DNA from: Halarcobacter sp.
GTDB lineage: Bacteria; Campylobacterota; Campylobacteria; Campylobacterales; Arcobacteraceae
Assembly (NCBI GenBank): GCA_050296315.1
Contig: JBNKRE010000006.1
Span: 89,760 to 153,759 of the forward strand
Reading direction: 5' to 3'
DNA: 64,000 bases
Part shown: piece by piece, positions 14,033 through 17,178 of the stretch
Layout: each line of letters opens with the position of its first letter
Numbering within the stretch: the stretch's first letter is position 1
Notes under the pieces: generated by a model
Database searches by the model: none
What the model was told of the DNA's origin: nothing
The model's input: only the letters and a program-made list of their open reading frames with translations
Program-made: the position numbers and the translations under genes

Positions 14033-14046
14033 TTGATTTAAATCAA
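14033..14046 (+). promoter_or_regulatory. Perfect FNR-consensus box upstream of Crp/Fnr gene (autoregulation)
   Basis: TTGATTTAAATCAA; TATAAT at 14069-14074, 22 nt away. Confidence 0.85.
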
Positions 14047-14109: not shown

Positions 14110-14772
14110 ATGAATAATATCAAAGATATAATAAAATCGATACCACTATTTACAGCTTTGCCAGATGATGAAATTGATTTGTTGTCTACAATGTCTCACG
14201 TATCAAAGTACAATGCAAACACAGTACTTTTTTATGAGTCAGAAACAACAGATGAATTACTTTTTTTGGTTGAAGGCTTACTAAAAGTATATAAAATAGA
14301 TAAGTATGATAATGAGATATTTTTATATTATGTCTACCCAAACTCTATGATATCAGAATTATCAAATCTAAATGACAATAAAATCAACTGTTTTTCAAAT
14401 AGTGAGTTTTTAAGAGATAGTGTGATGCTTTGTGTGAATTTTAAAAAATTTAAAGAAGAGTTCTTAAGTCAAAATGATTTGGTACAAAAGTTTATCAATG
14501 AACTTATTTATAAAAATCAACAACTTCAATGTATTGTAAATAGAGAATTGGTTTTTGATGCAACTTCAAAAGTTGCTTTTATGCTTACAAATGATTTGGA
14601 TATGTTTAATCACCTAAAAAGAAATGAAGTATCATTGTTGCTACATATACAGCCAGAAACTTTATCAAGGGTATTAAAAAGATTGGTTAGAAATGGTACA
14701 ATATCGATTGATAAAGGGATTGTATCTATTGAAAATGGTGATGAATTAAAAAGTATCTATTTAGGATTATAA
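14110..14772 (+). CDS. Crp/Fnr family regulator, NssR/DNR-like (no FNR Cys cluster)
   Basis: cNMP-type sensing domain, HTH with ETLSR recognition helix; 220 aa. Confidence 0.92.
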   Translation: MNNIKDIIKSIPLFTALPDDEIDLLSTMSHVSKYNANTVLFYESETTDELLFLVEGLLKVYKIDKYDNEIFLYYVYPNSMISELSNLNDNKINCFSNSEFLRDSVMLCVNFKKFKEEFLSQNDLVQKFINELIYKNQQLQCIVNRELVFDATSKVAFMLTNDLDMFNHLKRNEVSLLLHIQPETLSRVLKRLVRNGTISIDKGIVSIENGDELKSIYLGL

Positions 14773-14773
14773 G

Positions 14774-15763
14774 ATGAAAAAAGAGATTAGTGTTAGTGGG
14801 AAAATAAAGATTTTAGGGGCATTACTAATATCTACAGTATTTTTTGTAATTTGTGTATCTTTATATTTAAATTTAAAAAATTCAAAAGATGCAACTATTA
14901 TAAATATTGCTGGTAAACAAAGGATGCTTACACAAAAAATTACTAAAAATATCTTTTATTTATACCAAACAAAATCAAATAATTTTACACAAATTGATAA
15001 TGCAATAGAAGAGTTTAATTATGGATTAACAACTCTAAAAGATGGAAATGAGTTATTAAATATATCTGCTGCTCCAACAGATATAATAAGTAATCAAATA
15101 TCAAAAGTTATAGTTTTATGGAATACTTTTGAAAAAAATACAAAAGAGTTTAAAGAAGCTATTTTAAAAGATGATATTCAAAAACAAAACTCTATATTAA
15201 AATATATGTATGAAACAAATACTATACTTTTAGAAGAAGTTGATAAAGTTGTAAGTTTATATACAAGATATATTGAAGAAAAAACTGCATTTATAAAAAA
15301 CTTCCAATATACTTCCTTTGCATTAATGTTTATGTTGACAATTTATTCTTTGGTGCAATTAAAACAAATTGAGTCTCATGCAAAAGAGTTTATGTCAAAA
15401 TATAATCAATTAAATTCGGGTGAGATAACTAATTTAGAACCTATACACGTAGAGAGTGAAAAAGAGTTTGTAGAGATGGCAAACAATATGAATAATTTTA
15501 TAAATAAAGTAAATTCTGCTATGAATTATTCAGAATCAGCTCTTGAACAATCAAAATTAGCATCAGAAAAATTGTTAGATTTAACAGATGAGTTTGAAAA
15601 TATTATTGATGAGTTAGGAAATAAATCAGAAATAGTAAAAGAGATAAATAGAAGTGAAGATATCGCTATCGAGTCATCAGAAAATCTACTTAAGACTACT
15701 AAAAAACTAAATGATTTAAAAACACAACTAGATTTACTATTAAAAAACTGTCAAAATAAATAA
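14774..15763 (+). CDS. Membrane protein with NarX/PilJ-type nitrate-sensing domain, no kinase or MCP output domain
   Basis: TM1, P-box-like INIAGKQRMLTQKI, TM2, then about 130 aa helical tail without H-box or MCP hairpin. Confidence 0.8.
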   Translation: MKKEISVSGKIKILGALLISTVFFVICVSLYLNLKNSKDATIINIAGKQRMLTQKITKNIFYLYQTKSNNFTQIDNAIEEFNYGLTTLKDGNELLNISAAPTDIISNQISKVIVLWNTFEKNTKEFKEAILKDDIQKQNSILKYMYETNTILLEEVDKVVSLYTRYIEEKTAFIKNFQYTSFALMFMLTIYSLVQLKQIESHAKEFMSKYNQLNSGEITNLEPIHVESEKEFVEMANNMNNFINKVNSAMNYSESALEQSKLASEKLLDLTDEFENIIDELGNKSEIVKEINRSEDIAIESSENLLKTTKKLNDLKTQLDLLLKNCQNK

Positions 15764-15840
15764 GCCAAGAAGGAAGATAAAAAAAATATTAGTTTAGGAA
15801 TTGTTTTTTAATTATAGGAGGAGAACCTTCTTGGTTATTT
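15752..15840 (-). ncRNA. Candidate Nss-controlled small RNA with anti-Shine-Dalgarno loop
   Basis: Box 15875-15888 plus TAAAAT 15847-15852; CCAAGAAGG/CCTTCTTGG closing stem; loop contains UUCUCCUCCU; boundaries inferred. Confidence 0.35.
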
Positions 15841-15874
15841 GATAAAATTTTAACTGAAATTTTTAGTAAATAGT

Positions 15875-15888
15875 TTGACTAAAATCAA
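15875..15888. promoter_or_regulatory. Nss/FNR-type box in a convergent intergenic region
   Basis: TTGACTAAAATCAA; -10-like hexamers 22 nt away on both sides (TAAAAT minus, TATATT plus). Confidence 0.65.
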
Positions 15889-15914
15889 ATATCTAAACTT
15901 TTTCAAATATTATA

Positions 15915-16928
15915 TTATTTCCATTTAACTTTTTTAAATACTTCTACAGCTTTATGATTATAGTATCCAAGGTATTCCATATTTATTTTATCTTCTTTAA
16001 AATTCCCCCATGATTTTAATAATTCTAAGGGTTCAACTGCTTCATTGATTGGGTATTCATAAGAAGCTTCTGCATAGATTTTCTGAGCTTTAGGACTTAC
16101 CATAAACTCCATGAATTTGATTGCATTTTCTTTATTTTTGCTATATTTTACAACACCCATTCCTGAAATATTTATATGACTACCTCTTTCGTTTTTTCCT
16201 TGGTCAGGAAAAAATATACCAATATCATCAGTAAGTTCAACTTCATGAGGTTTTTTTGAATTTATCAATTTAGCAAGATAATAAGTATTTATAATTGCAA
16301 CATCACCTCTATTATATGATATAGATTTTATTTGGTTAGTATCACCTTCTAATGGGCTTCTAGCTAGGTTTTTTATAATACCTTTTGCCCATTTTGTTGT
16401 CTCTTTTTCACCTTCGTATGCTATAAGTGCTGCTAACAATGACATATTATACATTTCGGTTGATTTTCCTACAACAATCTTTTTTTTCCATTTTGGTGTT
16501 GCTAAATCTTTATATGTTGATAATTGGGATGGAGAAACTTTCTTTTTATTATATGCTATAACTCTAGCTCTTTTCGTAAGAGCATACCAATAACCCTTTT
16601 TTTGTCTTAAATGACTTGGTACAATCTTCTCTAGTTTTTCTGATCTTATTGGTTGTAATAAATCATTATATTGTGCATAAACAAGCCTTCCTGCATCAAC
16701 TGTGATTAATACATCAGCATCTGTATCTTTTCCATCTGATTGAATCTCTGTAAGCACTTCTGATGAGTCCAATTTAGTTACATTTATTTTTATACCAGTT
16801 TCTTTTTCAAACATTTCAAATAATTGTTTATCTGCAAAATAGTATCTGTGAGAATAGACATTTAATACATTTGATGCATTTAATGATGAAAATAATATTA
16901 ATGCACCTATAATTAATTTTAAAATCAT
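15915..16928 (-). CDS. Fe(III) ABC transporter substrate-binding protein (FutA/FbpA-like)
   Basis: Signal peptide, LNVYSHRY, DVLITVDAGRL, WYALTKRARV, INTYY, HINISG; Fur-like box upstream. Confidence 0.88.
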   Translation of the reverse strand: MILKLIIGALILFSSLNASNVLNVYSHRYYFADKQLFEMFEKETGIKINVTKLDSSEVLTEIQSDGKDTDADVLITVDAGRLVYAQYNDLLQPIRSEKLEKIVPSHLRQKKGYWYALTKRARVIAYNKKKVSPSQLSTYKDLATPKWKKKIVVGKSTEMYNMSLLAALIAYEGEKETTKWAKGIIKNLARSPLEGDTNQIKSISYNRGDVAIINTYYLAKLINSKKPHEVELTDDIGIFFPDQGKNERGSHINISGMGVVKYSKNKENAIKFMEFMVSPKAQKIYAEASYEYPINEAVEPLELLKSWGNFKEDKINMEYLGYYNHKAVEVFKKVKWK

Positions 16929-16989
16929 TCTTATCCTTCATAAAAAAATTTTAGAACTATACAAATTTAATCTTAAATAATTATTAAAA

Positions 16990-17004
16990 TGATAATCACT
17001 ATTA
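16990..17004. promoter_or_regulatory. Fur-like box
   Basis: TGATAAT-C-ACTATTA upstream of the Fe-binding protein gene. Confidence 0.6.
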
Positions 17005-17072
17005 AATATCTATTTTACAATTTCATATTATTTAGTAATAAAAGGAACGTAAATTGCATTATATAAAAGAAA

Positions 17073-17087
17073 TGATAACTATTATCG
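17073..17087. promoter_or_regulatory. Fur-like box
   Basis: TGATAAC-T-ATTATCG upstream of exbB. Confidence 0.65.
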
Positions 17088-17178
17088 ATATTAATATTAA
17101 ATTAAGTAAACTTCTTTTAATATTTCAATTAAAATATCATTTTTTAAATTTTGGTGTAAAATTATATAAAGGACAATA

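Follow-up and report, generated by a model that had tools for sequence, protein, structure and literature searches.

An orphan Crp/Fnr-type box between convergent genes probably acts as a promoter

By analysing a 64,000-nucleotide stretch of DNA from Halarcobacter sp. (contig C6:89760-153759 of a 3.9-Mb Arcobacter-family assembly with 28% G+C, G000; hereafter the window, whose numbering is used throughout), we found a Crp/Fnr-type box between the 3' ends of two convergent genes. Judging from its sequence and geometry, this orphan box is probably functional, as a class-II promoter within the local Crp/Fnr ("Nss"-type) regulon that fires on the minus strand at ~15840, and we think it rather probable that a box-dependent minus-strand RNA exists. 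The predicted RNA is a hairpin in whose loop an accessible stretch, UCUCCUCCUA(U), is complementary to the ribosome-binding site (RBS) of ccoN, the gene for the catalytic subunit of the cbb3 oxidase.

The convergent gap that carries the box is 151 nt long and lies between the gene of a PilJ/NarX-like sensor (plus strand) and that of a periplasmic solute-binding protein (minus strand). The box itself, TTGACTAAAATCAA (15875-15888; TTGATTTTAGTCAA when read on the minus strand), is palindromic and perfectly matches TTGAY-N4-RTCAA, and downstream of it in the gap there is no gene on either strand. These observations confirm the first-pass annotation of the window, made from the sequence, which had described an orphan Nss box between two gene 3' ends. 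By counting TTGA-N6-TCAA in the window, we found 12 occurrences versus 3.96 expected, a three-fold excess reached by 0 of 100 shuffles. Genome-wide, 55 boxes match TTGAY-N4-RTCAA, 19 of which are in the non-coding 10% of the genome, and the box at 15875 is the only one located between convergent genes.

Twelve intergenic boxes (one of them filed as genic by the open reading frame (ORF) caller) have a TAnnnT hexamer pointing to a gene at exactly 22 nt, and the genes identified behind them are napA, nnrS, moaA, hcp, a cytochrome c gene, the regulator gene itself, nrfH and a microprotein gene. First, the orphan box shares this geometry: on the minus strand, a -10 hexamer TAAAAT (15852->15847) is separated from it by a spacer (15853-15874) of exactly 22 nt, the length found in the 12 gene-proximal promoters, so that the spacing called canonical at the outset was verified. 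The bases after the -10 (TTTATC) are like those of other regulon promoters (TAAACTttca, TAAAATttca), and a start at ~15840 would centre the box at -41.5. Second, with a position weight matrix (PWM) trained on the 12 gene-proximal promoters, for which the leave-one-out scores of true sites range from -4 to 37 with a median of ~23, the minus-strand site scores 20.9, the second-best value genome-wide for a site outside the training set. Third, a TAnnnT at 22 nt occurs on 2 of the 72 strand-sites of genic boxes (~3%); the box at 15875 has one on both strands.

The predicted RNA is a long-loop hairpin with an exposed seed

The predicted RNA (15753-15840, minus strand) is ~88 nt long, with a presumed start at ~15840 and a presumed end in the U tract 15763-15753, and it reads AAAUAACCAAGAAGG-UUCUCCUCCUAUAAUU...-CCUUCUUGGCUUAUUUAUUUU. 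Its 5' end and 5' stem arm, AAAUAA-CCAAGAAGG (15826-15840), are followed by a 52-nt A/U-rich loop that opens with the seed UUCUCCUCCUAUAAUU (15810-15825), and then by the 3' arm and the tail, CCUUCUUGG-CUUAUUUAUUUU. The core of the seed, CUCCUCCU, is the reverse complement of 15816-15823 (CUCGUCCU denotes a mutated version of this core), the 3' arm CCUUCUUGG occupies 15765-15773, and the U-rich tail UUAUUUAUUUU (15753-15763), read directly, overlaps the sensor stop and last codons. The stem consists of 9 perfect pairs (15834-15826 with 15773-15765) and contains 5 G-C pairs; the 9 pairs and the U-rich tail are as first described, and the 14 pairs then counted for the longer stem become 15, A/U flanks included, with one bulged C.

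The minus-strand fold has a minimum free energy (MFE) of -18.4 kcal/mol (z = -3.26), which 0 of 200 shuffles equalled, and the plus-strand fold is less distinctive (z = -1.7). When begun at the predicted start, the RNA folds at -14.2 kcal/mol into a single long-loop hairpin. The seed is unpaired in both the MFE and the centroid structures, and its opening energy is 0.1 kcal/mol. On the plus strand, the stem is likewise followed by a U tail, the mirror image UUAUUUGAUAAAAUUUU, which makes the stem-loop bidirectional. Between the stop of the solute-binding-protein gene and the stem there is no other hairpin, leaving the stem as the sole plausible terminator for both flanking genes.

Searching 15000-16700 on both strands against Rfam 15 gave no family at E<=1 and no match to the FnrS covariance model, the three chance-level matches (E 1.7-6.4) being to eukaryotic miRNA and snoRNA models; the RNA would thus be an analogue, and not a member, of described families. 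Several other candidate features were tried for this region and rejected. The minus-strand RNA is devoid of ATG, and its ORFs do not exceed 5 codons; on the plus strand only TTG-GTT-ATT-TGA (3 codons) follows AGGAGGAG, so that a small ORF was discarded on either strand. A repeat or miniature inverted-repeat transposable element was discarded as well, the sole other match of a 501-bp query in its own genome being 25 nt of the coding part of the solute-binding-protein gene.

Promoter and hairpin are kept in close relatives and recur in a second lineage

We compared the gap with that of G017, the nearest species, at 90% identity over 501 bp, and with that of X2, a metagenome strain at 97%; together with this genome, the two are called lineage A. 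In G017, the box and its flanks show 0 changes in 19 positions, the start region and 5' arm (15826-15846) 0 in 21, and the 3' arm 0. The -10 is TAGAAT instead of TAAAAT, which preserves TAnnnT, and the spacer carries 7 substitutions in 22 positions (32%) and no indel, though indels occur elsewhere in the gap; the loop has 4 substitutions and 2 indels. X2 has 2 changes in the 151-nt gap, namely 15814 A>G and a poly-A run shorter by one A. The first of these is common to G017 and X2 and turns a G.U with ccoN into G-C, and CUCCUCCU is present in both. Thus box, stem and seed, whose conservation had been named as a check, are all kept in these two relatives, a pattern that would be the footprint expected of a minus-strand promoter under spacing constraint, as read from very close genomes. 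By DNA search of 40 relatives, no homologue of the orphan RNA was found beyond G017 and X2.

A reverse-facing promoter and a hairpin were also found behind the orthologous regulator-sensor operon of three further species (G009, G018 and G013, lineage B). There, the sensor stop is followed by a hairpin composed of AAACCGATAT, a 20-22-nt loop and ATATCGGTTT, and, ~87-91 nt past the stop, by the box TTGACTTA(A/G)GTCAA, from which a minus-strand TATAAT is exactly 22 nt away. Among the three species, the spacer varies in sequence at a constant length; stem, -10 and box do not vary at all, and the loop is hypervariable, both between species and in a metatranscriptome strain. The RNA predicted for lineage B likewise starts A-rich, continues with the hairpin and ends in a clean U tract. 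Another box follows after 89 nt and serves napA, the gene that in lineage B follows the sensor gene where lineage A has the solute-binding-protein gene. As a control we took the boxes that follow the sensor gene in G020, G177, G175 and G093: all four have their -10 directed forward, to the next gene, and a reverse -10 is found in 0 of 4. Rfam gave no match for the lineage-B locus.

Lineage B is not the sister of the window's lineage in the sensor tree, and therefore the promoter-hairpin unit was ancestral, with loss in between, or else arose twice; the likeness of the two lineages from the -10 to the stem base (TAWAAT-TTWAT..AAATAA(A)CC) hints at common descent. Since the loop of lineage B is hypervariable and without the seed, the conserved feature is the promoter-terminator unit and not the anti-Shine-Dalgarno (anti-SD) motif. 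The anti-SD loop seed first proposed is found in all of lineage A and absent from lineage B, which suggests that the ancestral role was that of a cis-antisense RNA or of a plain promoter-terminator module, and that the trans-acting seed is a lineage-specific addition.

The loop seed matches the ribosome-binding site of ccoN

Among ~3600 start regions, ccoN ranks 2 for the seed, and 4th (G000) and 3rd (G017) for the whole loops. The window RNA and the ccoN leader would form 10 Watson-Crick pairs and one G.U at -17.7 kcal/mol (-19.0 kcal/mol in G017), with a cost of 2.8 kcal/mol for opening the mRNA site. The predicted energy of the validated CJnc190:ptmG pair, -16.9 kcal/mol, is in a comparable range (PMC8687705). 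The paired site, 5'-(G)UAGGAGGAGA-3', belongs to a leader of ~30 nt, AAAAAA(U)UUAGUAGGAGGAGAUUGAUG, that hardly varies among 24 genomes of the genus. The motif AGGAGGAG is rare in the genome and serves as the Shine-Dalgarno (SD) site of one called gene only, most likely ccoN, in which it lies 4 nt upstream of the ATG. In G000, the ccoN leader (C6:199430-199475, outside the window) is preceded by a conserved direct repeat, GTGAC-N6-7-GTGAC, that may be a regulator site.

Other top seed matches, all of them candidates, are an ABC ATPase (C2:317826), a hydrogenase cytochrome b subunit (C8:69336) and an aldehyde dehydrogenase (C9:87953) with a bipartite 9+10-bp match. The anti-SD seed, first described in general terms, can be narrowed to a single candidate target, the invariant ccoN RBS; target prediction with whole loops does no better than with shuffles. 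Shorter and longer words of the seed were also searched elsewhere: the 9-mer CTCCTCCTA has 8-55 matches in each of the nrf-less genomes, which is too unspecific, and the 12-mer TTCTCCTCCTAT falls mostly in GGEEF-domain coding sequence.

Two further non-coding elements of G000 were recorded on the way. At C14:14930-15010, a convergent gap holds a hairpin AAAAAAGAGTT...AACTCTTTTTT with CUCCUCCU in its loop, followed by a second terminator-like hairpin. At C14:6100-6260 and C20:11970-12130 there are two copies of a ~100-nt non-coding element, TATTTATTCTTAAGTCCTTTATTGTCTAAAAAAA...TATACTCCTCCTTAGTATATACAGTTGACATGCGTGCGAAC.

An independent nrfA-nrfI hairpin is also complementary to the ccoN leader

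Outside coding sequence, the assembly contains the 12-mer UUCUCCUCCUAU once more, in a hairpin loop between nrfA and nrfI (ccsBA-like) on contig C23. This hairpin (C23:6770-6845 in G000, also present in G018, G013, G009, G005, G015 and G010) comes after a first G+C-rich terminator and lies downstream of the Nss-box promoter that fronts nrfH. Its A/U-rich stem, AATAAATAACACCTA/TAGGTGTTATTTATT, encloses C/U-rich loops that differ by species, and it is conserved across the genus with covarying stems. Among the ~3600 start regions, the native ccoN leader ranks 1 for the nrf loops of G000, G018 and G013, 2 for G009, 4 for G005, 7 for G015 and 5 for G010. It ranks 35 and 37 for the loops of G024 and G004, respectively, and is not enriched among these start regions for those of G001, G006 and G022.

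The seven top-ranking loops are of at least 4 sequence types and pair in differing registers and beyond the SD core: in G009, UCCUCCUACUAA pairs with UUAGUAGGAGGA, the G018 type makes ~16 pairs reaching into the start codon, and the G010 type also covers AUGCAAA. Such extended pairings in different registers make a real relation between Nss-regulon hairpins and ccoN likely, and an accidental origin of the window seed less likely. The nrfA-nrfI hairpin is thus a candidate 3'-untranslated region (UTR) element or intergenic sRNA that may couple nitrite respiration to the synthesis of the cbb3 oxidase. It had no match in Rfam and no coverage in the relatives' RNA data. We did not find nrfA in G017, and therefore the orphan RNA is the only seed carrier found in that genome.

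Contig C23 (11.4 kb) has 97% DNA identity to G018, yet the sensor proteins of the two genomes are 62% identical, so that C23 may have been acquired horizontally or be a contaminant of the assembly. Among contigs C31-C221, many of those <2 kb have 35-49% G+C, versus 28% for the genome, and the assembly probably contains foreign or horizontally acquired DNA.

A tentative model and the explanations that compete with it

The make-up of the locus, the regulon fit, the conservation and the complementarity are seen in the sequence, from which the transcript with its two ends, a dependence on the regulator and the target are inferred. On this footing, we propose the following chain. When the Nss regulon is on (presumably with nitrate, nitrite or nitric oxide (NO) and at low oxygen), the orphan promoter would fire on the minus strand, and RNA polymerase would enter the bidirectional terminator common to both convergent genes and release a ~88-nt hairpin RNA. 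The enlarged loop of lineage A would expose UUCUCCUCCUAUAAUU, which could pair with the ccoN RBS and possibly with a few other very strong SD sites, and this pairing would block the initiation of ccoN translation. Oxygen respiration would thus go down while nitrate/nitrite respiration and NO defence go up. The chain in full, that is an Nss-dependent sRNA acting via its loop on ccoN or on another strong RBS, is a possibility that we hold tentatively, at somewhat less than an even chance. A broader version is rather unlikely as it stands: a genus-wide respiratory switch, in which Nss-regulon hairpin loops antisense to the invariant ccoN leader shut down cbb3 translation, the nrfA-nrfI hairpin being the usual carrier and an nrf-less lineage having converted the terminator of its regulator operon into a stand-alone sRNA. 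Such a conversion would need a promoter firing back into the terminator and the insertion of a seed into the loop, amounting to the birth of an sRNA by exaptation of a terminator.

Several points weigh against this chain. On the side of the RNA, a 52-nt loop closed by a core of just -7.5 kcal/mol makes a weak, non-canonical terminator, and a consensus terminator scan called only a small inner plus-strand hairpin and not this stem; the 3' end of the RNA is therefore uncertain, and transcription may run on, antisense to the sensor gene. On the side of the target, whole-loop duplex energies against the ~3600 start regions are the same as for shuffled loops, hence they give no genome-wide discrimination and the seed-level result alone is reported. 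Moreover, the ccoN rank hangs mainly on one 8-11-mer and on a target chosen after the fact, and the gene with the longest SD would come out ahead with any anti-SD 8-mer. On the side of conservation, lineage A covers genomes 90-97% identical only, the stem would be kept anyway as terminator of both flanking genes, the promoter-hairpin unit was seen in two lineages of one genus only, and the seedless lineage-B loops give ccoN ranks of only 41, 374 and 205. Finally, searches with window sequences turned up no RNA run that contains the locus, neither for this organism nor for G017, and for lineage B we found metatranscriptome contigs and oligo-dT runs, neither of which resolved the region, a single strandless 329-nt metatranscriptome contig spanning it from the sensor gene to beyond the hairpin.

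Under a rival reading, in favour of which the failure to find an RNA run also counts, there would be no functional small RNA at all, the stem-loop being a bidirectional terminator or 3'-UTR structure and the box a rearrangement relic or a decoy site for the regulator. The order of genes past the sensor is highly rearranged in the genus, where boxes commonly serve the next gene, the stem is the only hairpin able to end both flanking transcripts, and TAnnnT hexamers are not rare in an AT-rich genome. A relic should decay, yet the box is perfect and the 22-nt spacing was kept despite 32% substitution of the spacer; besides, the same reverse geometry comes with a perfect TATAAT in three species of lineage B, a TAnnnT at 22 nt is found at ~3% of non-promoter boxes and on 0 of 4 reverse sides of forward boxes, and the order box, -10, SD that a decayed gene start would have left is present on neither strand, by which the idea of such a gene-start relic was rejected. 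We therefore regard a locus without any functional RNA as improbable, though deserving to be taken seriously. If an RNA is made, it could act in cis only, as a perfect antisense to the 3' UTR of the regulator-sensor mRNA, terminator hairpin included: a loop-loop kissing duplex would be cut (e.g. by RNase III) or stabilised and feed back on the operon, the ccoN match being incidental. GadY/gadX and 3'-overlapping type I antitoxin RNAs are precedents for such an arrangement. It would account for the position behind the same operon being conserved in both lineages despite different downstream neighbours, and for a lineage-B loop that is free while stem, -10, box and spacing are fixed, as expected where complementarity is automatic; also, a box at 14033 belongs to the operon itself, which would thus be positively autoregulated and could profit from a brake. 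However, it leaves unexplained the 30-nt expansion of the loop in lineage A, the 12-mer shared with the nrfA-nrfI hairpin and the loop substitution of G017 and X2 that improves pairing with ccoN, and we judge it unlikely.

Two plus-strand alternatives fared far worse. The TATATT hexamer (15911-15916), raised in the first-pass annotation, is indeed exactly 22 nt from the box, whose palindrome could serve both directions, and with a start at ~15923 it would direct an antisense RNA against the solute-binding-protein gene. Against this, its PWM score is -2.9 versus 20.9 for the minus strand, a 6-nt deletion removes it in G017 where the box is retained, and the first box of lineage B is without a plus-strand -10 (TTTTAA, TTTAAA and GTTTCA); this promoter is hardly credible. 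Nearly as doubtful is a sponge, in which the 3' UTR of the sensor operon would present AAUUAUAGGAGGAGAA, a near-copy of the ccoN leader, as a decoy that draws off ribosomes or the RNA of the nrfA-nrfI hairpin. Between the plus-strand loop and the ccoN leader AAUUA(G)UAGGAGGAGA, 15 of 16 positions agree, and the loop is a perfect 12-nt complement of the C23 nrf hairpin loop, but G017 retains the motif without nrfA, C23 is possibly foreign to this genome given its 97% identity to G018, and box, -10 and spacing would have no explanation. The first-pass interpretation of the locus as an sRNA gene is partly supported and is the best on offer: it gains from the fit of the minus-strand promoter, from conservation and from recurrence in lineage B, and loses from lineage-B loops that are without the seed and from a stem that may be no more than a 3'-UTR structure.

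Flanking genes and regulator

The regulator gene (14110-14772, plus strand; Pfam cNMP_binding and HTH_Crp_2) is followed after 1 nt by the PilJ/NarX-like sensor gene (14774-15763, plus strand; Pfam PilJ), whose stop TAA is at 15761-15763. The 3' UTR of this operon is antisense to the predicted minus-strand RNA. The regulator-sensor pair is kept in 14 of the 14 relatives examined, and the sensor is present in 142 of 184 family genomes. In the regulator protein we found the recognition-helix motif E--SR (ETLSR) and no Cys cluster of the FNR type, and NCBIfam gave CRP/FtrB matches only, below threshold; the name "Nss" is therefore used by analogy with the Wolinella and Campylobacter regulators. 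Respiratory regulation in the Arcobacter family is known solely by analogy with Wolinella Nss and Campylobacter NssR (PMC6682613, PMC8139620).

On the other side of the gap, the solute-binding-protein gene (15915-16928, minus strand, stop at 15915-15917; Pfam SBP_bac_8/6/1) would give, by read-through, a transcript in which the orphan hairpin serves as 3' UTR. Between this gene and exbB, the divergent promoter region contains the Fur-box-like sequences AATGATAATCACTATTA (16989-17005) and AATGATAACTATTATCGATATT (17070-17093), which suggests that the transcript ending in the shared hairpin is controlled by iron. Given that the hairpin must also end the solute-binding-protein mRNA and that Fur-like boxes lie upstream, the seed could also arrive as a 3' UTR under iron limitation. 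In X2, a 1-nt deletion in the solute-binding-protein gene is offset by a 1-nt insertion at a distance of 3 nt (16002-16005), giving a compensated frameshift.

Comparison with known regulatory RNAs

We found no described regulatory RNA for the Arcobacter family in the literature. Campylobacterota are not known to have Hfq. If the proposed sRNA is real, it would be the first one in Campylobacterota to depend on a regulator of the Crp/Fnr family, it would link nitrate/NO sensing to the control of the high-affinity cbb3 oxidase, and it would show that a terminator hairpin and a reverse-facing, activator-dependent promoter can turn into an sRNA gene.

RoxS/RsaE of Bacillus and Staphylococcus have C-rich seeds that pair with SD sites. 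The candidate would further resemble them in a NO/redox-responsive induction and in targets among mRNAs of respiration and central metabolism (PMC8139620), but they differ by a two-component regulator, another phylum, multiple C-rich motifs and no antisense relation to the regulator operon. FnrS of E. coli and Salmonella is an FNR-activated sRNA (Durand & Storz 2010, as reviewed in PMC8139620). As with FnrS, the promoter would be targeted by an FNR-family activator, and the proposed RBS pairing would repress functions that are dispensable in anaerobic/nitrate respiration. Unlike FnrS, to which Rfam indicates no homology, the regulator here is without the Fe-S Cys cluster and the RNA would use a terminator hairpin common to two genes and run antisense to the operon of its regulator.

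Within the same phylum, RepG of H. pylori and CJnc190 of C. jejuni are short hairpins in which an unpaired C/U-rich loop pairs with a G-rich leader or RBS and so represses translation (PMC8687705, PMC8295292), as is proposed for the candidate. They are not homologous to the RNA predicted here, for which the proposed target is ccoN and the loop is far larger (52 nt). In addition, the transcriptional regulators of the CJnc180/190 promoters were still unknown (PMC8687705), whereas the orphan promoter would belong to a defined Crp/Fnr regulon. GadY/gadX-type RNAs and NarS are similar in that they are encoded where the mRNA of a regulator or regulon ends, on the same or the opposite strand, and share its terminator; NarS is released from the narK 3' UTR (PMC8139620), and a similar release is conceivable from the solute-binding-protein mRNA. 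The arrangement described here differs from both by a dedicated activator-dependent promoter placed just past the terminator and firing back into it. We regard the candidate, homologous to no described family, as a probable new sRNA, activator-dependent and RBS-masking, that would be functionally comparable to FnrS, RoxS, RepG and CJnc190.

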